From the IMG/VR virus record IMGVR_UViG_3300009161_000051, positions 1 to 59,310 of that record: a stretch of DNA of 59,310 nucleotides; one strand, given 5' to 3'. The number at the start of each line of letters is the position of its first letter. The first letter of the stretch is position 1. Positions 26,295 through 54,828 of the stretch are shown here, piece after piece. The position numbers and the translations under genes were made by a program. Below the pieces are notes generated by a model. It searched no databases, had not been told where the DNA came from, and saw only the letters and a program-made list of their open reading frames with translations. The DNA comes from a virus (taxonomy: Duplodnaviria; Caudoviricetes).

Positions 26295-26677
26295 TCCGAG
26301 TAGAAGTCCCCCTAGCTCCAAGCGTTAATCGCCTGTGGAGAGCTACAAAAGGCGGCAAGGTCTATCGGTCGAGCGAGTACACAAACTGGCTGACCGAGGC
26401 CAGTTGGATGATCAAGAGCCAGACCAAAGACAAAATCATTGGGCAATACATTTTGCACATAGCCGCAGTCAAACCTGACAAGAGGCACAGGGATTTGGAC
26501 AATCTCCTGAAGGCAACCTGCGACCTGCTTGTCAAAACAAACATTGTTGAGAGTGATTCTATGTGCCGCGCTCTAGCCGCTGAGTGGGTAGAATTTGGCG
26601 CACCTATGACACTGACCGTATACGGTCTTGAAGAGGAAATTGAAGAATGGAAAATCCCAAAACATATGGTGAATTGA
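26291..26677 (+). CDS. rusA: RusA-family Holliday junction resolvase
   Basis: PSVNRLWR...PDKRHRDLDNLLKATCDLL...ESDS. Confidence 0.9.
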   Translation: MIRVEVPLAPSVNRLWRATKGGKVYRSSEYTNWLTEASWMIKSQTKDKIIGQYILHIAAVKPDKRHRDLDNLLKATCDLLVKTNIVESDSMCRALAAEWVEFGAPMTLTVYGLEEEIEEWKIPKHMVN

Positions 26678-27078
26678 AGGCTCACTATCTAGCCGTCAGT
26701 AAACGCCTAAACGGGGTTACAGGTGGCACGGGTGTTGTTCCTATTGAGCGGGTGTATCGACAATCTGAACAGGCTGATCATCACGTTGCCAGTACGACCT
26801 TTGCCCTTGAGACAGAGATGCCTCATTACAAGTTTATCCGTATGCTCCGGCAGGTAGCGGCAAACCACAATATTGATCCGGCTTTGGTGATGTCCAACTC
26901 AATGGCAAAGAATGTCCTATCTGTAAGGCGTGAAGTCCAATGGAAAGCACGGACAGAACTGAAAATGTCTTACGCCAAGATTGGTCGCATAATGAAACGG
27001 GACCATACGTCTGTTTTGTCCGCAGTAAAAAAGTGGCAAGAGATGCATCCACAAGTCTGTCACGCATCAACTCCATAA
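26647..27078 (+). CDS. Protein with DnaA C-terminal-like HTH
   Basis: MSYAKIGRIMKRDHTSVLSAVKK. Confidence 0.75.
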   Translation: MENPKTYGELKAHYLAVSKRLNGVTGGTGVVPIERVYRQSEQADHHVASTTFALETEMPHYKFIRMLRQVAANHNIDPALVMSNSMAKNVLSVRREVQWKARTELKMSYAKIGRIMKRDHTSVLSAVKKWQEMHPQVCHASTP

Positions 27079-27888: not shown

Positions 27889-28188
27889 ATGATCACTGCA
27901 AAAGCAATCCCAAAACCTACCAAAAAAAAGAAGAAGTTACGGGATGAGAACGCACCCAAGAAATTGCGCGGGTTTGCGGCTATGTCTGCTGAAAGAAGGA
28001 AACAGGTTGCTACGTTGGGCGGTTTGTCTGTCCCAAAAGAGAAGCGCACCTTCAGCAACAAAGCTATAGCCATCAAGGCGGGTAAGATCGGCGGCAAGAA
28101 CGTGCCAGATGAGAAGCGGTCGTTCTCGGTGGATCGGGAGCTTGCAAGTCGTGCAGGAACAGCGGCGAGGAGTAAGGTCGATGGCTAA
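27889..28188 (+). CDS. KGG-repeat general stress protein homologue
   Basis: RGFAAMSAERRKQVATLGG..RTFS..AGKIGG..RSFSVDRELASRAG. Confidence 0.75.
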   Translation: MITAKAIPKPTKKKKKLRDENAPKKLRGFAAMSAERRKQVATLGGLSVPKEKRTFSNKAIAIKAGKIGGKNVPDEKRSFSVDRELASRAGTAARSKVDG

Positions 28189-28651
28189 TTACTGGACGAT
28201 GGACGAGAAGGCACTTGCTATTGAATTGTTAAACAAAAATTACTCGGCTCGACAGATTGCGGCTAAATTGAATGGGCGCACCAAGAACAGCGTGATTGGC
28301 GTGTTGAACCGGATGGGGTTACACTGGCCTAGTGCTAAACCAAAATCAAAACGTGAGTCAAAAGATAAGCCAAGGAAGCTCACGCATACGCCTCAGAATG
28401 TGAAGGTCAATATTGAATACAAGAGCATGGTTGATACTGTCTCAAGACCAAGCGGCGGTGTTCCGTATTTTTCTATCAGGAACTTTGAATGCCGTTACAT
28501 CACGTTTCAGGGTGAGAGAATTGAACACACCTTGTTCTGTGGCGATCCGACAAAAGGTATGACAAGTTGGTGTATTAAGCACCATGCAATTGTGTTCAGA
28601 CCAAAGGATACGCCGAGGGGAGCCTACATTGGGAAAGCGGTCGGATTTTGA
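28181..28651 (+). CDS. gcrA: GcrA-family cell-cycle transcription regulator
   Basis: WT...SARQIAAKLNGRTKNSVIGVLNRMGL N-domain; ECRY...FCG.P...SWCIKH C-domain. Confidence 0.85.
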   Translation: MANYWTMDEKALAIELLNKNYSARQIAAKLNGRTKNSVIGVLNRMGLHWPSAKPKSKRESKDKPRKLTHTPQNVKVNIEYKSMVDTVSRPSGGVPYFSIRNFECRYITFQGERIEHTLFCGDPTKGMTSWCIKHHAIVFRPKDTPRGAYIGKAVGF

Positions 28652-29501: not shown

Positions 29502-29813
29502 ATGGGACTTTTTTATATGCCTTTTTCATGGGGCGACTATTGGCGTGATACGGGTCACCTGTCAGATAGTGAACACGTTAGCTATCTAAAACTGATTAGC
29601 TATTACTGGCACAACAAATCTTTGCCGTCTGATGATGAAAGACTGGCGAGAATTGTAGGCCGCTCATTGTTTGAATGGATGGCAATGAAACCGACACTTC
29701 AGAGCTTCTTTTCTGAAGGTTGGACGCATCAAAGAATTGAGCGAGATTTGGTAAAACAAAACAATCTTGTGATACGTGGAAAGAAGGGTGCTGATGCTCG
29801 GTGGAATGCTTAA
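29502..29813 (+). CDS. DUF1376/YdaU-family replication initiator (N-terminal domain only)
   Basis: YMPFSWGDYWRDTGHLS..EH..YLKL...LPSDDERLARI...WTHQRIERD; followed by iterons. Confidence 0.8.
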   Translation: MGLFYMPFSWGDYWRDTGHLSDSEHVSYLKLISYYWHNKSLPSDDERLARIVGRSLFEWMAMKPTLQSFFSEGWTHQRIERDLVKQNNLVIRGKKGADARWNA

Positions 29814-40858: not shown

Positions 40859-41013
40859 TGGCGACAAAAAAGAAAGGCATTCTCACATCAGCACCGCAGT
40901 GGTGGGATCATCTGAAGGACTGGAAGAAAGTATTTTGGAGCGCAGAACGCAATGCCGTTAAAAGAGAAATTGAAAAAGAACTTAGAAACTCAAGAAATAA
41001 GGGAGACTACTGA
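40858..41013 (+). CDS. 51-aa basic hypothetical protein (not in ORF track)
   Basis: AAGGAG RBS; MATKKKGILT..QWWDHL.DWKKVFW..ER. Confidence 0.55.
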   Translation: MATKKKGILTSAPQWWDHLKDWKKVFWSAERNAVKREIEKELRNSRNKGDY

Positions 41014-41645
41014 TGAATGTGGAAGATATTTTAATTGAAGACCTAGAACTTAGCACAAGACTGCACAATTGTCTCTTGAATGACAATCTTAAAACAATTG
41101 GAGACGTTCTTAAAATATCGCAAGAAAAAATGTTAAGATCACCTAATTTTGGAAGAAGATGTTTAAATGAACTTAAACAAGTATTGTTTGAACATAAAGT
41201 TCTATGGCCCAGTACTAAAAGCGGTGAAGAAATTCAGCTAACAAAAGAAGAACGTAGCATTGAAACTAGGAGACGGTGGAAAAAAGCTTACGTTTTGCAT
41301 CAGGCGGGATGGGACTGGAGTTCAATTGGCAAAGAATTAGAAGTTTCAAAACTTTCAGCAAAATCAATGGCTAAGAAATATCGTAAAGAACATGATATTC
41401 CAATTATTCCTGTTCCTATATGTTGGAAACCAATATCAACAGCACCAAGAAATGGAACAGCTTTTTTAGGAGCAAAATACTTTGGCTACACGATTGGTTG
41501 GCAACGGTACATATGCGTGTGGCATAACCCAACATCACAATTTGCAGCGTGTTTTAGTATTGCTGAAGGAGGTGAATTGTATCCTTTAAATGAAAAAAGT
41601 TTTCCAAGCCATTGGATGGCATTACCGGAGCCACCAAATGTCTGA
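41013..41645 (+). CDS. RNA polymerase alpha-CTD-like domain fused to HTH-like and DUF551-like domains
   Basis: IEDLELSTRLHNCL...IGDVL...MLRSPNFGRRCLNELKQVL; WKPISTAPRNGT...PSHWMALPEPP. Confidence 0.8.
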   Translation: MNVEDILIEDLELSTRLHNCLLNDNLKTIGDVLKISQEKMLRSPNFGRRCLNELKQVLFEHKVLWPSTKSGEEIQLTKEERSIETRRRWKKAYVLHQAGWDWSSIGKELEVSKLSAKSMAKKYRKEHDIPIIPVPICWKPISTAPRNGTAFLGAKYFGYTIGWQRYICVWHNPTSQFAACFSIAEGGELYPLNEKSFPSHWMALPEPPNV

Positions 41646-43324: not shown

Positions 43325-45604
43325 ATGGCTGGACTTGTCCCTAATATCCGCCTCGTAGAAGACGCCCCCCAAGACGTTCCTACTGAAGGAATGGACGTTG
43401 TTGTAGTTGAAAACTCTGATCCAGAGGGCGATAACCTACAATACGATGAAAACGGTAATGTTTTGCGGATTGAACACGATGATGGATCAATCAGCGTGTC
43501 ATTGGACGGGCGTCCTATTAAATCCAACGATAAAGACACGCCGGAAAACTGGTTTGACAATCTTGCCGACGATATGAGCGAGATGGAACTCAGCAGGATT
43601 ACTGAAGACCTTTTGCGAGGCATTGGAGAAGACATAGAGAGCCGCAAGGACTGGATTGAGGACAGAGCGCAGGGATTGCGCCTTCTTGGTCTCAAAATTG
43701 AACTGCCGGGCCTACAGGGTTCCGCAGACGGCGCACCAATTGAAGGCATGAGCAAGATCAGGCATCCGTTGCTTTTAGAAGCCGTGCTGCGTTTTCAAGC
43801 TAATGCGCGTTCTGAGTTACTGCCTACTGACGGGCCTGTTAAAATCAGGAACGACGACACAAACGGTTCACCTGAAGAAGACAAACAAGCTGAAGACTTA
43901 GAAAAAGATTTCAATCATTATCTGACGGTTACGGCTAAAGAGTATTACCCAGATACGGACAAAATGTTGTTTATGCTTGGCTTTGGCGGATCAGCGTTCA
44001 AGAAAGTTTATTTCTGTCCGTTAAGAAATCGTCCTGTATCTGAAACTGTTGATGCGGATGATCTGATTGTAAACAATCAAGCTACTGATCTTGGAAATGC
44101 TCGCCGTATTACGCACAGGATTATGATGCGCCCGTCCGTTGTAAAGCGGATGCAGATCATTGGCGCATATCGTGATTGCGATCTTGGTCAGGCTGTTGCA
44201 AAGACGCCTAATGCAATTCAACAGGAAAAGAACGCACAGCAGGGCATTCAGCAAGATGTAAAATCTTCTGAAGATCGTGATCGTGAGATTTATGAGTGCT
44301 ACTGTGAACTTGATATCCAAGGCTACGAGCATACCATTGATGGTGAGCCTTCAGGTCTTGAAGTCCCATACCGTGTGACGGTTGACGTATCTTCCAAAAA
44401 GATTTTAAGCGTTGTCCGCAATTACGATGAGGATGAAGAACTTCCAGAAGCCAAGACAACATTTGTAAAGTGGGATTTTATCCCCGGTCTAGGTTTCTAC
44501 GGTATTGGTTTGCTTCACATTCTTGGCAATACGACAAATGCCCTGACAGCTACATGGCGTGAGCTTCTTGACGCAGGTATGTACGCAAATTTCCCCGGCT
44601 TCTTGTATGCAAAGGCGAGTGGTCGGCAGAACACAAACATTTTCCGTGTTCCTCCCGGTGGCGGCGCACAGATTGATACGTCAGGTATGCCGATACAACA
44701 GGCTGTCATGCCTTTGCCGTACAAAGAGCCTTCAGGCGCACTGATGCAGTTGTCTGAAAACATGAGCCAATACGGTCAACGTGTTGGTGGTACTGCCGAG
44801 ATGAATGTTGGAGAAGGTCGTCAAGATGCACCTGTTGGAACAACGCTTGCGATCATTGAACAAGCGCAAAAGGTTCTCAACAGCGTTCATAAGCGGATGC
44901 ATTCAGCACAGGCGGATGAGTTTCAACTTCTTGCACAGTGCTTTAGGGAGAACCCAACATCGTTTTGGGAACGCAACAAGCGTCCTGCAAAGAAATGGGA
45001 TGAACAGCAGTTTATAGCTGCTCTTGATAACTATTTGCTTGTTCCACAGGCTGATCCAAATACCGCATCGCACATCCAGCGCGTTATGAAGGTTACTGCT
45101 TTGATACAGTTGGCAAAAGAAGCACCACAGCTTTACAACATTGAAGCTGTCAATAAAGAAGCCTTGATTGCCCTTGGCTGGTCTAATCCTACAAGCCTGT
45201 TGCGTGATCAAGCAGAGCAGACTCCTCCTCCTCCAGAGGAAATGGCAAAGATGGCGGAAGCTCAAGCTAAAATGATTACGGCTCAAGCCAAGATTGCTGA
45301 AGTTCAAAGCGGCGGCGTTGGTGTACCAATGGACCCGGCAAAGGTGCAGATGGAACAGGCTGCAAATGAAGTAAAGCTGGCTGAGATCAAACAGCGTTCT
45401 ATTGATGCACAGTTGGACGCCATGAACCGTAAGCGCGACAGGGAAAGCCGTGAGAGAATCGCTACAGTGAAACTAGCTGAAACTATTGCAGAAAAACCTG
45501 AATCGATGGGCATCATGGACGGGATCATTAAACCTGATATGCTTACTCGTCTTGAAGGAAATGAAGAACCGTTTACACCAAATCCAGATGGCATTGTTAA
45601 GTAA
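43325..45604 (+). CDS. Portal protein (P22-like)
   Basis: 759 aa; HPLLLEAVLRFQA, GSAFKKVY, PGLGFYGIG, APVGTTLA; helical C-terminal barrel. Confidence 0.9.
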   Translation: MAGLVPNIRLVEDAPQDVPTEGMDVVVVENSDPEGDNLQYDENGNVLRIEHDDGSISVSLDGRPIKSNDKDTPENWFDNLADDMSEMELSRITEDLLRGIGEDIESRKDWIEDRAQGLRLLGLKIELPGLQGSADGAPIEGMSKIRHPLLLEAVLRFQANARSELLPTDGPVKIRNDDTNGSPEEDKQAEDLEKDFNHYLTVTAKEYYPDTDKMLFMLGFGGSAFKKVYFCPLRNRPVSETVDADDLIVNNQATDLGNARRITHRIMMRPSVVKRMQIIGAYRDCDLGQAVAKTPNAIQQEKNAQQGIQQDVKSSEDRDREIYECYCELDIQGYEHTIDGEPSGLEVPYRVTVDVSSKKILSVVRNYDEDEELPEAKTTFVKWDFIPGLGFYGIGLLHILGNTTNALTATWRELLDAGMYANFPGFLYAKASGRQNTNIFRVPPGGGAQIDTSGMPIQQAVMPLPYKEPSGALMQLSENMSQYGQRVGGTAEMNVGEGRQDAPVGTTLAIIEQAQKVLNSVHKRMHSAQADEFQLLAQCFRENPTSFWERNKRPAKKWDEQQFIAALDNYLLVPQADPNTASHIQRVMKVTALIQLAKEAPQLYNIEAVNKEALIALGWSNPTSLLRDQAEQTPPPPEEMAKMAEAQAKMITAQAKIAEVQSGGVGVPMDPAKVQMEQAANEVKLAEIKQRSIDAQLDAMNRKRDRESRERIATVKLAETIAEKPESMGIMDGIIKPDMLTRLEGNEEPFTPNPDGIVK

Positions 45605-45613
45605 GAGGTTGCT

Positions 45614-48600
45614 ATGGAAGATTATGATCAGGATATTGCAAATGCCCTGCGTTTAGCACAACCATCAGAAGCAGCTAGAGAAGCACAACGCATACAAGCA
45701 TTCCGAGATCAACAGGCAGCAGACGAGCGTAGGTTTGCTCCTACGATTAACATAAGCAATCAAGGCCAAGTGATGAATGAGGCGCAACGGTATAGACCGA
45801 TGCCTTCAGCCACTGGTGAACCCGTCCAACCTGTCCAACCCGTCCAACCGGGCATGATGGGTCGTGCTTATTCTACAGCAACAGGTGGCAGAAACGCTCA
45901 GGCCGATATGAGCAGTGCTTTAGAAAATTTGCCTCAACCAATGGAATATTTTGATGACGTTGCAAAAGCAGCACGAGAATCAAGTGCATATGCAAAGCAA
46001 GGCATTAATAAAATGGGGGAATCTGGTAACCCTTTCAATCAAGTTGTAGGTGGTGGTGAGTATGCTCTTGGTTCTCTTGGGTATCTAGTTTCCCCTTTTA
46101 CAGGCGCAGTTACAAATTTAGTAACTAATCCGGCTAAAAAAGTTTTTGGTGAACCATTTGCCCAAAGAGCAGACATAGTTGCTAATTTAATAGACCCGTT
46201 TTCTCCAACGGCTTATGTGAAGGCGGGGCTTGCGGCAGCTATCCCTACATTAGCAATGGCTACTATTCCGGCTAAATCTAAAGCGATAGAAACTGCTTTG
46301 CAGGTAGCAAATCAAGCGTCTGATTTAAAAACCCCAGAACAGTTAGCTTTAGAAACAGCGCAAAAAACTGCACCTTTGCCTACACCTGCTTACAATCAGC
46401 CAATAGGCCCATTGTCTCCTCCAGTTGTTCCAAAAGGTTCTTCAGCATCGCAAGCAGTAGATTTGTTAGCTGAGACGCCTAAAGCAGATGCTGATGCTAT
46501 TAGGGCAAATAATCAGGGAACCGGGTTGGTTTACCCTGAAGATGAAGCACTTGAACGGTTAAGACTTAAATTATCACGTAAAGAACCAGCACTTGCTTTG
46601 GGAGAAAAAGCTCAAACCAGTTCTGTTGGCGATCCTTTGAATGAAAGAAGAATTATCCGCGCTCCAAGAGATGCGGAAGGCAACCCAATTGCAGGAAAGC
46701 CTGATTTCACGGTGGGCAAAATTACACCACAAGATTGGGTAAATCGTGCTGAAAGCATGATGAATGATAATGAAATTCAAGAAGCGTCAACGTGGTATGG
46801 AAAAATAAGAAGTATCTTTAACAATTACACAGGTGGTGATTCTGAAAAAACAAATAAATATATGAAGGCTTGGCTTGTAGGGCAGCAAAATGTTGATGTT
46901 GCTGGTTCATTAAAAAATGTGTTTTTACAAGCTGAACAATTTGCTAGAAAAATACCAGAAGCAGAAATGACTGGTGGAGGTATGCCTAACCCAACATATG
47001 CTATCCGTCAGGTTCTTAAAGATGAACCTATTGAATACGGCGTTGGGCAAAAAATTTCTGATTTTGTTGATTCTGCGGAAAATAAACCCGTCAGATCATG
47101 GATGGCAAATCATCCTGATGGCGGGTCGCCTTTTGTCGTTGATGTTCACACTGCAAGAGACACAGGATTGGTTGATCAAAAATTAATCAACCATTTAACT
47201 AAATTAGGATACAACACGGAAGATTTGAAAAATTTAAAACTTGATTTTAGTGATGCAATTTCACCTCAAAAATATGAAAATCGTTCAGAATTTGGGCATG
47301 AAATAACAAATTATTTAAATTCTATTACTTGGAAAGGCAGAAATGATTGGACGCCATTAGAAGTTCAGGCTGTTGGCTGGATGGGGATGACACGTTTAAC
47401 AGCGGATAAAGCAGAAGATGTTGTAAGCGGGTTTGAAAGAAACCTCCGTAGAATTTCTATGGAAGCTGCGCCCGGAGAGGGGTCGCCTATTCATACTTTA
47501 TATAACAACAGATTTAGTGTTTTGTCTTTGCCAGAAAAAGAAACAATTACTCAAAACATTACCAATAAAGCTCTGGAGGATGTGTCAAACCTCGTTGGTA
47601 TTGATTTAAGGTCTATCGCTCATGGATCGGGCGGTTGGAATATGGATATTAACCCATCCAGCGTTGGGCAGGTTTATGCAACTCCACAAGCTGCTCAAAT
47701 GGGTGCAAATATCCTTGGGCATATTTTGCAACAGTCTGAAGTTTGGTCAAATTCAGTAAAACCTTTAACACAAAACCCAAGCAGTTTTGCTATTGATTTT
47801 CTTGAAAATGGCACAACAAATCTACGCGATAATACGCAGCTTGCTGATTTTTGGAGCCGCATTCAAAAAGCAGACCCCGATAAAAAGAAACCTCTTTTTG
47901 TTGGATATCAGCCAATTTCTACACCAGATGGAAGAATTGGTATCCGTGTTTTAATTGATCGTGGTGGAGCAAAATTAGCAGAAACATTGACTTCCGCAAT
48001 TGAAGGGCCGATACAAAAAGAATTAAACAATATAGGATATGATGTTTCTGCTCAGGTGCATGAGGCAGAAATTTACAAAGCACAACATGATTGGAAAGGT
48101 GACCCCAGTGGGCAAAGTTACATTACTGCCGCCAGCAACCTCCTTGGACGAGATTCCACAAGCGATCTCAATAATTTACGGGAAAAATATCAGGAGCAAT
48201 TCCGACAGGAACTTGAGTCCGCAGAAGACAGAACCAAGCGACAAGGAACTTCAACAATTGATCAACAAGGACTACAAGGATCACCAGAAGAGGTATCGCG
48301 CCAAATTGACCAACGTGCCACCGCGCAAAATTACATTGAAGGAAATGCGGGAGCTTTTGAACAAAATTCATCCGATGTTCTGACAAAAGATGTTGGTTCA
48401 GGGCGGAACTTTACCGGGTTTTTTGCAAATATTACTTCTGGACTTACTGGCAAACCAACAACAATGGTTGGTTATAAACCTGCGTTTGATATTTCAAAAA
48501 TCAAACCGTTTTCAGAAGAGTATTTAAAACACATTGGAAATTTTGATGACCATATTGGTTCATCAATTCCCGCTTTTAGAGAAATACAACAGTCCGTTGG

Positions 48601-50806
48601 AAATTCAATTGTAAAAACTTTTGGGGAAGGTGCTAATATGCTTGATATTGGCGCGTCTGAAGGAGCTTTGGCAAAGACAATTACCCAATTAAGCAACGGA
48701 AAAATTAAAACAGTTGCATTAGACCCTAACCCGTCAATGCAAGCGTCATTTAACAATATTTCTCAAGTTCCCGGTTCAGAATACTACCTTGGTGCTTATG
48801 GTCATGCTGATGATGAAGGTAAAGTAGCTTGGACAGAAGACGCTATTCTTAAAGACAAAAACGGTGTTGATAGGGATAATCCACACGCAAATATAGACAT
48901 TCCTTATTACGCCCCTGATAGAAAATTTAATGTTGTCCATGAAGCAATGGTTTTTCAATTTATGAACAACAATCGTTCTGCTCAAATACAACGCGCAAAA
49001 GAACTTATGGAACCTAATGGTATTTTAATTTTAGAAGAAAAATTTATTCACGGCGACGGCTTAAATTTAGAAGAATTTTTGGCAAATGAAGTTAAAAAAG
49101 ATGCTTACAAAGAGCAATTTTTTACCCGTGAAGATATTGAAAGAAAACGCCAAGCTATTCTAAGCGGGAAAGAAGATGAATTTGTTGAAGGAGAAAAAGC
49201 AAAAGAAGCAGCCGTTGTTGGAATGCATGATTTGCAAGTTTCTCCCGGACATATTGAAAATGAATTAAAAAAGAATTTTAAAGTTGTTACACAATTTTGG
49301 GATAGTGGAAATTTCAAAGGCTATGTAGCATCAGATGATCCTGCTACATTGTCTCGTTTTTTAGCTAATATGCCATCTACAAACAGTGAATATTCTACAA
49401 TTCAAACACCAAGAATGGTTACGTCTCAAAGTAAAACACTTAATTCTCGTATTGATATGCCTCACAAAGATATTATGGCTCGCGATAAAGTTTTAGAAGA
49501 TAACGTATTAAAATTAACAAATAACGAGATTACCCCTGAGCAATGGGATGCGTTAGTTAATGAAAGAAAACCTGTTGAGCCATACTCAATGGATAGAATT
49601 CCTGTACCTGCAACACCAGAACAGGCTATCAATGCTTTAAACAAAGACAAAAAAGAAAAATATGGTTTAACGGATCAATATTACAAAGAAGGTGACCCCG
49701 TTAAACTACGATTGGATATTCCTGCTTATGAATATTATAGCACATGGGTTAATGCTATCCATGATGGAAGGTCTGGCGACGGGAAAAACCCTACTACCTA
49801 TAGCAGCGTAAGCGCGGCAACTAATGTTGAATTTGATGTATCCAAAACAGGATCAATGAAAACAGCAAAAGGAGGCAGCAAAGCCCCATATGCAACTATG
49901 AGCGGCAAATACAAGTCTGTAACGCCTGAAGAAGCATATGCTAAAGCTCAACAGTACTTTAATGATCCGCAATGGGTTCAAATTGGTATGGACCCAACAC
50001 GGCATTCTTTCTTTTATACCCGTGAAGGCATGAAGCCTGTTACAAGTGCGGAAGAAGTCCTTCAGATAGGCCCATTGGTTTTTGCAAAAAATCCAACTTA
50101 CGGCAACAGGGCTAATTATAAATTTAACCAAGGCGGTCGTGTAGGGTATGATAACGGCGGTGGAACTGGGCAAGGAATAGCCGCAGATTACATAAGCAAA
50201 GCACTTATGGCTGCTCTTCAAGGAACACAAGATGCTCCCGGCATAGCTGCGACACACGCTGGAGATTATGCAACAGAAGTTGCGGCTCAACATTTGGGTG
50301 CATTGCCTGAAGTCGCGCATGGCGTATTTGCAAATTTGCCTGAAGCTGCTAAAGGAGAACTTCTTTCAAGACCAACATTAGGCATTGATTGGTGGAATGA
50401 ATTTTTTAAAGAACAAGGTTTGCAAAGCCACCAAGTAGACCCAATGGTGCATGATTTAGCATTAGCTACAGCAATTCTTTCTCCAATTTCCGATACATTA
50501 AAATTAGGAACTAAAGCAGCGGAAATTGGCATTGAATCTGTTCCAGTTGTACAAAAACTTATAGCTCCCGCTAAAGAAATTAAACATTTTCCAATAGGAA
50601 CAAGCCATCCTAAAGTTGAAACAATAGCTCATGGTCTTGCAAAAACGGAAAAAGCGGGAACTAAAGTTGGTTATGGTTTAACAGCAAATGCTGAATTAAA
50701 TCCACAATCATACGGCCCACCTGAAGGCCAAGTTAGTGCAACCCATCATGCCCGTGGTGGTTCAGTTGACCATGCGCTACAGTTAGCGCATTATTACAGT
50801 AATTGA
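45614..50806 (+). CDS. Large polyvalent (probably packaged) protein with HhH-glycosylase-like and CmoA-like SAM-dependent domains
   Basis: WY..; GQKISDF; VVDVHTAR; EVQAVGW; FDDHIGSSIP..MLDIGASEG..VFQFM..PNGILILEEK..GNF; C-terminal GG motifs. Confidence 0.7.
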   Translation: MEDYDQDIANALRLAQPSEAAREAQRIQAFRDQQAADERRFAPTINISNQGQVMNEAQRYRPMPSATGEPVQPVQPVQPGMMGRAYSTATGGRNAQADMSSALENLPQPMEYFDDVAKAARESSAYAKQGINKMGESGNPFNQVVGGGEYALGSLGYLVSPFTGAVTNLVTNPAKKVFGEPFAQRADIVANLIDPFSPTAYVKAGLAAAIPTLAMATIPAKSKAIETALQVANQASDLKTPEQLALETAQKTAPLPTPAYNQPIGPLSPPVVPKGSSASQAVDLLAETPKADADAIRANNQGTGLVYPEDEALERLRLKLSRKEPALALGEKAQTSSVGDPLNERRIIRAPRDAEGNPIAGKPDFTVGKITPQDWVNRAESMMNDNEIQEASTWYGKIRSIFNNYTGGDSEKTNKYMKAWLVGQQNVDVAGSLKNVFLQAEQFARKIPEAEMTGGGMPNPTYAIRQVLKDEPIEYGVGQKISDFVDSAENKPVRSWMANHPDGGSPFVVDVHTARDTGLVDQKLINHLTKLGYNTEDLKNLKLDFSDAISPQKYENRSEFGHEITNYLNSITWKGRNDWTPLEVQAVGWMGMTRLTADKAEDVVSGFERNLRRISMEAAPGEGSPIHTLYNNRFSVLSLPEKETITQNITNKALEDVSNLVGIDLRSIAHGSGGWNMDINPSSVGQVYATPQAAQMGANILGHILQQSEVWSNSVKPLTQNPSSFAIDFLENGTTNLRDNTQLADFWSRIQKADPDKKKPLFVGYQPISTPDGRIGIRVLIDRGGAKLAETLTSAIEGPIQKELNNIGYDVSAQVHEAEIYKAQHDWKGDPSGQSYITAASNLLGRDSTSDLNNLREKYQEQFRQELESAEDRTKRQGTSTIDQQGLQGSPEEVSRQIDQRATAQNYIEGNAGAFEQNSSDVLTKDVGSGRNFTGFFANITSGLTGKPTTMVGYKPAFDISKIKPFSEEYLKHIGNFDDHIGSSIPAFREIQQSVGNSIVKTFGEGANMLDIGASEGALAKTITQLSNGKIKTVALDPNPSMQASFNNISQVPGSEYYLGAYGHADDEGKVAWTEDAILKDKNGVDRDNPHANIDIPYYAPDRKFNVVHEAMVFQFMNNNRSAQIQRAKELMEPNGILILEEKFIHGDGLNLEEFLANEVKKDAYKEQFFTREDIERKRQAILSGKEDEFVEGEKAKEAAVVGMHDLQVSPGHIENELKKNFKVVTQFWDSGNFKGYVASDDPATLSRFLANMPSTNSEYSTIQTPRMVTSQSKTLNSRIDMPHKDIMARDKVLEDNVLKLTNNEITPEQWDALVNERKPVEPYSMDRIPVPATPEQAINALNKDKKEKYGLTDQYYKEGDPVKLRLDIPAYEYYSTWVNAIHDGRSGDGKNPTTYSSVSAATNVEFDVSKTGSMKTAKGGSKAPYATMSGKYKSVTPEEAYAKAQQYFNDPQWVQIGMDPTRHSFFYTREGMKPVTSAEEVLQIGPLVFAKNPTYGNRANYKFNQGGRVGYDNGGGTGQGIAADYISKALMAALQGTQDAPGIAATHAGDYATEVAAQHLGALPEVAHGVFANLPEAAKGELLSRPTLGIDWWNEFFKEQGLQSHQVDPMVHDLALATAILSPISDTLKLGTKAAEIGIESVPVVQKLIAPAKEIKHFPIGTSHPKVETIAHGLAKTEKAGTKVGYGLTANAELNPQSYGPPEGQVSATHHARGGSVDHALQLAHYYSN

Positions 50807-54435: not shown

Positions 54436-54828
54436 ATGCCGTACATGAGAATGCATCATGCGGAAGACCCAAAGCAGATGATCATGAAAGAATTCAGCGA
54501 TATCAACAATATTGAGGTTTTCAACACAAGCATCATTGTAGCGATCTATGTCCGCCCGGATACGACCAAGAGCGGGATCGTTCTGCCCGGTCAGACACGG
54601 GATGAGGACAAATATCAAGGAAAAGTCGGTCTTGTTGTCAAAAAAGGCAACTTGGCTTTTGTCGATGACAACGAGACTTGGTTCAAAGATGTTTCAGTTG
54701 ATGTTGGGGATTGGGTTTATTTCCGTCCTTCTGAAGGCTGGGCAATGACAATTCATGGCGTTCTTTGCCGTGTGTTGAGAGACGTAGACGTGCGTGGAAA
54801 GATTTCAGCACCAGATGAGGTTTGGTAA
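54436..54828 (+). CDS. GroES-like co-chaperonin
   Basis: TKSGIVLP...VGLVVKKG..AF...VDVGDWV. Confidence 0.8.
   Translation: MPYMRMHHAEDPKQMIMKEFSDINNIEVFNTSIIVAIYVRPDTTKSGIVLPGQTRDEDKYQGKVGLVVKKGNLAFVDDNETWFKDVSVDVGDWVYFRPSEGWAMTIHGVLCRVLRDVDVRGKISAPDEVW

Follow-up and report, generated by a model that had tools for sequence, protein, structure and literature searches.

The virus record IMGVR_UViG_3300009161_000051 (Duplodnaviria; Caudoviricetes) is complete at 59,310 bp, and the whole of this stretch is called the window below. An open reading frame (ORF) at 45614..50806 (+) begins with ATG, carries a GAGG 5 nt before the start codon and encodes a protein of 1730 amino acids (aa), P0001. The stop codon of the portal gene (43325..45604, +; phrog_1216 at 8.6e-27 and PF23899 SU10_portal at 6.2e-13) lies 10 nt upstream. 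The original prediction, made from the window's letters, had placed a polyvalent cargo protein of this length directly after the portal, and the ORF, its ATG and the portal matches were all found. P0001 is a polyvalent phage protein in which several unrelated enzyme-like cassettes are carried on a common chassis, made up of an N-terminal region and a C-terminal peptide.

A modular polyvalent protein

Comparison by blastp with 63 homologues, drawn from a 5.8-billion-protein collection in which 7,994 candidates were scored, divides P0001 into five blocks (A-E) that occur independently, at varying positions and in varying orders. Module A (aa 1-264; 45614..46405, +) is the N-terminal chassis region and is 63% identical to the N-terminus of the homologue P0018. 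Module B (aa 276-880; 46439..48253, +) is a large conserved two-domain unit. Module C (aa 929-1270; 48398..49423, +) is a class I S-adenosylmethionine (SAM)-dependent enzyme domain, which profile and hhalign comparisons and phrog_4752 indicate to be CmoA-derived. It is followed by module D (aa 1278-1510; 49445..50143, +), an enzyme-like domain without a solved structural relative, and by module E (aa 1519-1712; 50168..50749, +), which is 51% identical to residues 5-218 of P0037. The C-terminal peptide ...ARGGSVDHALQLAHYYSN (50750..50803, +) is common to differently built relatives.

Each of modules B, C and D belongs to a large family of its own, and their combinations vary. P0018 shares the chassis with P0001 and has a module D that is 59% identical, while its middle part differs. 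Module C is absent from 27/27 proteins that hold module B, one of which (P0004) also has module D, and module B is absent from 6/6 proteins that hold module C. Domains typical of recognised polyvalent proteins appear in the same company: InPase occurs in 7/28 proteins with module B and ART-PolyVal in 5/28, and LPD22, LPD38 and ddrB-ParB are found in other relatives of modules B, C or D. Structural matches in BFVD are proteins of uncultured phages, some of them named for a large polyvalent-protein-associated domain. The claim that P0001 is modular and polyvalent therefore stands, because its modules are reordered in relatives that carry these domains.

Polyvalent proteins, whose archetype is DarB of phage P1, are predicted to be injected with phage DNA, according to the available part of Iyer et al. 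2017 (PMC5512222). As described there, P0001 resembles them in being one long polypeptide of disparate, freely shuffled domains, in being encoded beside virion genes, and in having relatives with polyvalent-protein Pfam domains. Unlike polyvalent proteins such as P1 DarB, it lacks a MuF domain, a zincin peptidase and a methylase-helicase of DarB type. One result weighs against its membership: none of the Pfam polyvalent families, nor MuF, matches P0001 itself. The domain network that it shares with recognised polyvalent-protein domains runs through relatives only, in which those domains are joined to module B, C or D. The whole protein gives only marginal matches to Pfam and PHROGs, modules A and E match no Pfam or PHROG family, and a nucleotide search of GenBank phages with the P0001 gene gave no match.

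Across modules B-D (46001-50000) the G+C content drops to 0.40 and 0.38, from 0.47 and 0.45 in the 2-kb intervals on either side, which fits cargo cassettes acquired from elsewhere.

Module B and a putative base-excision domain

Module B represents a large family encoded by viruses. When 1.84 billion representatives were searched exhaustively with HMMER, 479 clusters reached E<=1e-3 and 257 reached E<=1e-30, and relatives are encoded in 307/489 candidate stretches of viral contigs. A motif-seeded scan of the genomes of 185,579 prokaryotic species confirmed only 2 relatives, both on contigs of metagenome-assembled genomes, and tblastn against 50,697 GenBank phage records found no match. The module can stand nearly alone, as P0197 and P0121 (557-605 aa) consist almost wholly of it. 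Pfam identifies no family in the module B segment, nor in 20/20 distant relatives.

An alignment of 71 sequences, with identity down to 26%, yielded an AlphaFold2 model with a predicted local distance difference test score (pLDDT) of 94.6 and a predicted template-modelling score (pTM) of 0.91. In this model an N-terminal helical part precedes a 12-helix domain (segment 100-332, corresponding to aa 370-602), which we delimit as aa 368-602 (46715..47419, +). A tandem beta-alpha-beta domain of ferredoxin-like alpha/beta type (aa 604-830; 47423..48103, +) and C-terminal helices follow. The helical domain holds a motif of the type found in the helix-hairpin-helix (HhH)-GPD family, GVGQK480 ... HPDGGSPFVVD510VHTAR (47039..47158, +). 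It is modelled as a helix at 458-468, a GVG loop, a helix at 479-488 that runs from K480, the loop HPDGGSPF, D510 and a helix at 511-516 (the helices are 188-198, 209-218 and 241-246 in the numbering of the model). Lys480 and Asp510 are invariant in 71/71 sequences, and 9/10 invariant columns of the 629-aa module fall in this domain.

According to the accessible text of PMC3397491, the HhH-GPD motif consists of an HhH, then a stretch rich in Gly and Pro and, after it, a conserved Asp; module B fits that definition. The same text gives Lys140 and Asp172, with a spacing of 32, as the catalytic pair of AGOG, and states that OGG subfamilies have little common sequence outside the motif. The nearest HhH-GPD enzymes to the module B domain are OGG2 (Tm1821, 3n0u) and AGOG (1xqp), and also EndoIII. 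The domain is modelled as helical and may have the two-lobed, all-helical build of these glycosylases. It resembles them in a Gly-x-Gly hairpin, a Lys that opens the second helix, and a Gly/Pro-rich loop leading to an Asp where a helix begins; Lys and Asp are spaced by 30, compared with 32 in AGOG. Unlike them, it has no detectable sequence-profile similarity to the known enzymes and its structural scores are moderate. It also differs in being fused to a tandem ferredoxin-like domain inside a phage polyprotein and in belonging to a family that is essentially missing from cellular genomes.

A series of searches weighs against the glycosylase reading. The Pfam HhH-GPD model PF00730 had no match in the window at E<=10, while its control matched in 14/14 genomes, and no glycosylase family was matched by 49 domain sequences in Pfam at E<=10. 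A profile of the HhH domain found only colicin Ib among PDB sequences, an irrelevant match at E 0.4. A word-seeded profile search of the 5.8 billion proteins returned 13 matches, all of them fragments of the module B family that carry no Pfam domain and provide no bridge to cellular glycosylases. Foldseek gave 0 matches to module B in the PDB at E<=1e-3. When hhalign was run against E. coli EndoIII, the motif alone aligned, at a non-significant probability of 0.4-1.2%. With a diverse profile, hhalign placed Lys480 on EndoIII Lys120 and Asp510 on Asp138 across a 12-residue insertion; this alignment is not significant (E 0.13, probability 0.5%). We take Lys120 and Asp138 to have catalytic roles in EndoIII. 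The EndoIII side of these comparisons was a single sequence or a 20-sequence alignment of 85-93% identity, whose near-identical homologues make a shallow profile. Two further searches are uninformative: PF09171 (AGOG) had no match, but its control matched 0/14 genomes, and in a second structural alignment of module B the list was filled by RND pump porter domains, which say nothing about the helical domain.

A kinship of aa 365-605 with DUF7178 (PF23802) was considered and found no confirmation. An ESM Atlas feature score of 0.95 had suggested it; the PF23802 model has no match in the window, and hhalign of the helical domain against two DUF7178-bearing proteins was not significant. DUF7178 is also present in the polyvalent relatives P0039, P0045 and P0056.

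The original prediction had likened this region to HhH glycosylases. The motif layout, the model and the invariant Lys and Asp speak for that claim, sequence profiles lend it no support, and it is best described as plausible but unproven. Going by the model, we regard an HhH-GPD-type fold of the helical domain as fairly likely. Real glycosylase or lyase activity is a prediction in which we place a little less than even confidence. If the domain lacked catalysis, its hairpin could still grip the packaged genome or the end of it, and P0001 would then be mainly a structural or ejection part (an internal head or ejectosome component) with its other modules as scaffolds. HhH hairpins bind DNA backbones without sequence preference, as the available text of PMC3397491 has it, and no sequence-level tie of module B to active glycosylases was found. 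Against such a role, Lys480, Asp510 and seven more residues are invariant over sequences with identities of at least 26%, which is typical of an active site.

Module C, a diverged relative of CmoA

Module C is, on the evidence of its profile matches, a diverged CmoA homologue. Its profile comprises 35 sequences from viral contigs, and a contig scan located relatives in 110/176 candidate stretches. The best matches of the profile in the PDB are the CmoA chains 1im8 (3.7e-8), 4iwn (2.1e-6) and 4gek (2.5e-6), and the next, a methyltransferase, stands at 0.044. Alignment with E. coli CmoA by hhalign reached 96.6% and E 6.2e-10 over 198 columns, which span CmoA residues 25-241 of 247, and phrog_4752 matches module C at 2e-14. 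TIGR00740 (CmoA) is the commonest NCBIfam match, seen in 32/35 members, all weak (best E 3e-9); the module C of the window scores 34.9 bits, below the equivalog cut-off of 193.3. In common with CmoA (E. coli b1870), to which it is homologous over nearly the whole fold, N-terminal cap and lid included, module C has the cap motif FxDxIxxSxPG, the residues that bind SAM, E164 paired with K165, and the C-terminal W..NF motif. Unlike CmoA, it contains insertions of 30-60 residues and invariant His, Glu and Lys residues of its own, and it is built into a giant head-module protein instead of being a free enzyme.

The SAM-contacting residues of CmoA are Asp62, Gly64, Ser66, Asp89 and Phe137, as given in the part of Byrne et al. 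(PMC3663124) available to us. Their equivalents in module C are kept in 35/35 (D62), 30/35 (G64), 29/35 (S66, with T in the other 6), 33/35 (D89) and 35/35 (F137) members. The equivalent of Glu164 is kept in 30/35 and that of Lys165 in 35/35, and at Tyr39 the family has F in 22/35 and Y in 8/35. The same source describes Arg199 as forming a salt bridge with the carboxylate of carboxy-SAM (Cx-SAM) and as the key residue by which CmoA proteins that hold Cx-SAM are defined. Here the family departs from CmoA. By hhalign mapping the Arg199 equivalent is Arg in 6/35 members, including R1179 of the window, and by MAFFT mapping in 0/35; the Asn132 equivalent is never Asn. Because the equivalents of Arg199 and Asn132 are not kept, the chemistry of module C cannot be read from CmoA. 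The family's own invariant residues are His980, Glu1110, Glu1159, Lys1162, Lys1166, Trp1229 and Ser1231, of which the polar His980 and Glu1110 occupy the places of CmoA Met31 and Leu131.

These residues bear on the suggestion that P0001 counters restriction by diverting SAM. Module C would then be a true carboxy-SAM synthase that converts host SAM and prephenate to Cx-SAM, and the outcome would be either that SAM-dependent defences are starved or that a DNA carboxymethylation pathway is fed, similar to the CmoA-CmoX system of phages. CmoA is by far the closest known family, the homology extends from the FxDxIxxSxPG helix to the W..NF motif, Glu164 and Lys165 are largely kept, and Arg1179 of the window is the hhalign equivalent of Arg199. 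Phage CmoA enzymes that make Cx-SAM are known, and in the accessible part of PMC12783734 their authors leave SAM depletion as a question. Set against this are the poor conservation of Arg199 under either mapping, the TIGR00740 score far short of its cut-off, and the polar His980 and Glu1110 at a site where the pocket round the methyl group of CmoA is hydrophobic (PMC10491745). In addition, among the 70 window ORFs no CmoB-type gene, CmoX-type C5-methyltransferase or DNA methylase was found (Pfam, E<=1e-3); a host-encoded partner is possible. This differs from the CmoA of phage S-B43, which works in a CmoA-CmoX-CmoY system according to the available text of PMC12783734, as no partner transferase was detected in the window.

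The CmoA-like part of the original prediction is thus upheld by homology over the whole CmoA fold (hhalign, PDB profile and TIGR00740) and by the kept SAM-contact residues, and its proposal of Cx-SAM formation or SAM diversion is weakened. Module C has CmoA-like ancestry and falls outside the Cx-SAM synthases, because of Arg199 and the equivalog cut-off. From these residues Cx-SAM synthesis appears doubtful, both Cx-SAM outcomes are distinctly unlikely, and a conventional SAM-dependent transfer on an enclosed substrate is more likely.

All of the motifs on which the original prediction was built were located in P0001 where it had put them. Those in module B are GQKISDF (aa 478-484; nt 47045-47065), VVDVHTAR (aa 508-515) and EVQAVGW (aa 583-589), and those in module C are FDDHIGSSIP (aa 977-986), MLDIGASEG (aa 1009-1017), AMVFQFM (aa 1111-1117), MEPNGILILEEK (aa 1132-1143) and WDSGNF (aa 1229-1234). 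They go beyond chance, because Lys480 and Asp510 are fixed throughout the module B alignment and the CmoA-type motifs lie in columns conserved in 35/35 members.

Module C also occurs in other settings. In the cultured Maribacter phage Panino it is part of an 1829-aa protein, CDS0069, which is annotated as a tRNA methyltransferase and encoded beside virion proteins. In a separate phage group (L056-L093; for example L065, 2533-3966), a CmoA-like domain takes up the last two thirds of a protein of 477 aa, and this protein sits between TerL and the portal.

Module D, module E and the C-terminal peptide

The additional domain that had been noticed at 49450-50110 corresponds to module D. It is a widespread domain with many invariant polar residues, and its family covers at least 564 viral stretches. 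Foldseek against the PDB gave no match to it at E<=1e-3, and the ESM Atlas gave none. PF25735 (Phage_L5_gp82) matches 32/39 members weakly (best E 2.5e-7) and in the C-terminal half only; the module D of the window scores 18.6 bits, below the cut-off of 27. This weak resemblance to the gp82 family of mycobacteriophage L5 falls in the beta-rich C-terminal half (aa ~1403-1483). Module D has double the length of that family and an extra, helical N-terminal half, and we consider it a candidate new fold.

The last 18 residues of P0001 (...GGSVDHALQLAHYYSN, aa 1713-1730) fit a conserved tail pattern, [VI][DNT]x[AV][LI]x[LIV][AVTLM]. This pattern occurs in the last 35 aa of 20/207 stored proteins of differing architecture, a set in which many entries are fragments. 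The remaining 306,572 residues contain it 9 times, so that 0.001 occurrences per tail would be expected, and P0001 is the only ORF in the window whose tail carries it. In the form GGx(V/I)(D/N)xAL(x)(L/I)A, the peptide closes many large phage proteins of different domain make-up (P0013, P0017-P0019, P0022, P0023, P0025, P0026, P0028, P0029, P0039, P0067, P0078, P0079, P0085-P0087, P0091 and P0144). Its recurrence suggests that it may be a docking or capsid-loading signal.

Gly-Gly-(Arg/Ser)-Val motifs are found at 50126-50146, where module D ends, and at 50756-50767, where the tail peptide starts. Module E looks inserted, because the two motifs are adjacent in P0018. The motifs might be linkers or processing sites.

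Genomic setting and probable delivery

The P0001 gene lies among genes for packaging and head assembly. The order is small terminase TerS (Sf6-type), TerL, several small ORFs, the portal and the P0001 gene. Downstream come two ORFs, of 171 aa and 815 aa, and the head-assembly block goes on with a GroES/Cpn10-like gene (54436-54828) and then the gene for the major head protein. Relatives show a comparable arrangement. Portal homologues lie directly upstream of their large proteins, as in L001-L003, L005, L009, L011 and L012, and the cultured Roseobacter phage CRP-207 has the order portal, a 62-aa ORF, gp58 (which includes module D) and coat. We infer injection and anti-restriction from gene position and family context, and P0001 is probably delivered by the virion.

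The position of the gene in the head block after the portal, the very large size of the protein and a conserved C-terminal peptide suggestive of docking would also suit P0001 as mainly a structural or ejection part. Such a part would not be expected to retain the full set of SAM-binding residues that module C keeps, or to exchange its modules as freely as P0001 and its relatives do, with module B absent from P0018 on the same chassis. Taken with the invariant residues of module B, these points make a mainly structural role unlikely.

P0001 could instead be an unpackaged late enzyme fusion of the cytoplasm that acts on new phage DNA before packaging, for example by base excision and SAM chemistry. 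The gene is co-oriented with the late genes; promoter-like and terminator-like sites around it are at chance level, with no internal signal above chance. Known phage CmoA homologues serve DNA hypermodification, as stated in the available text of PMC12783734. A joint pathway of this kind is argued against by the separation of modules B and C, which never occur together in relatives (0/27 and 0/6). The domains that co-occur with them are those of injected polyvalent proteins, and the 477-aa protein with module C is again encoded in a packaging block. We therefore hold a purely cytoplasmic role to be very unlikely and favour a polyvalent, virion-delivered protein.

Elsewhere in the window, at 41013-41645, 28109-28651, 26647-27078 and 29502-29813, the Pfam scan recognised a protein with the C-terminal domain of RNA polymerase alpha (5e-17), a regulator like GcrA (1.6e-13), a protein with a DnaA C-terminal helix-turn-helix and a DUF1376 protein. 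The GcrA-like regulator presumably indicates a host among the alphaproteobacteria. A search for tRNA genes in the window found none.

Proposed mode of action

The best overall explanation, which we hold with slightly better than even confidence, is that P0001 is a polyvalent, delivered protein with a base-excision-like cassette, a SAM-using cassette and a third enzyme cassette. P0001 would be built into the procapsid near the portal, possibly by way of its C-terminal peptide, and would exit the capsid along with the DNA. Inside the cell, module B would grip DNA through its hairpin and excise a base or nick abasic sites, with Lys480 forming a Schiff base and Asp510 assisting. Module C would use SAM; methyl transfer to a small or enclosed substrate is the more probable reaction, ahead of Cx-SAM synthesis. 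Module D would contribute a third activity. The likely purpose would be to shield the incoming genome at an early stage, or else to attack the host's DNA or defences.

A bolder and more tentative version, which we think possible though clearly less probable, predicts that module B is the first virion-delivered HhH-GPD base-excision enzyme, from a phage-only family of at least 479 clusters, and that it is accompanied by a retooled CmoA-derived enzyme and module D. Its targets could then be host DNA, marks installed by defence systems, or lesions on incoming phage DNA. In the literature searched, leaving aside supplementary tables, no text joins polyvalent proteins with CmoA. Polyvalent proteins and glycosylases are co-mentioned there, in one text as separate matters so far as its available part goes. 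The words 'glycosylase', 'base excision' and 'S-adenosyl' are absent from the main text of PMC5512222 in its accessible form, a check that did not extend to its supplementary list of 131 domains.

Significance

Polyvalent proteins are believed to act in the infected cell ahead of all other phage proteins, and a known chemistry can be given for few of their domains. P0001 exposes three large phage families that Pfam does not capture above its curated thresholds. Module B counts 479 representative clusters, the viral stretches confirmed for module C number 110 and those for module D at least 564, and each family offers concrete candidate catalytic residues. A delivered base-excision enzyme, if true, would give phages a new route for acting on DNA at the moment of entry. 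A CmoA fold without Arg199, if true, would show the repurposing of a rare SAM-carboxylating enzyme. If the C-terminal peptide is a capsid-loading signal, it could serve in packaging foreign cargo into phage heads.

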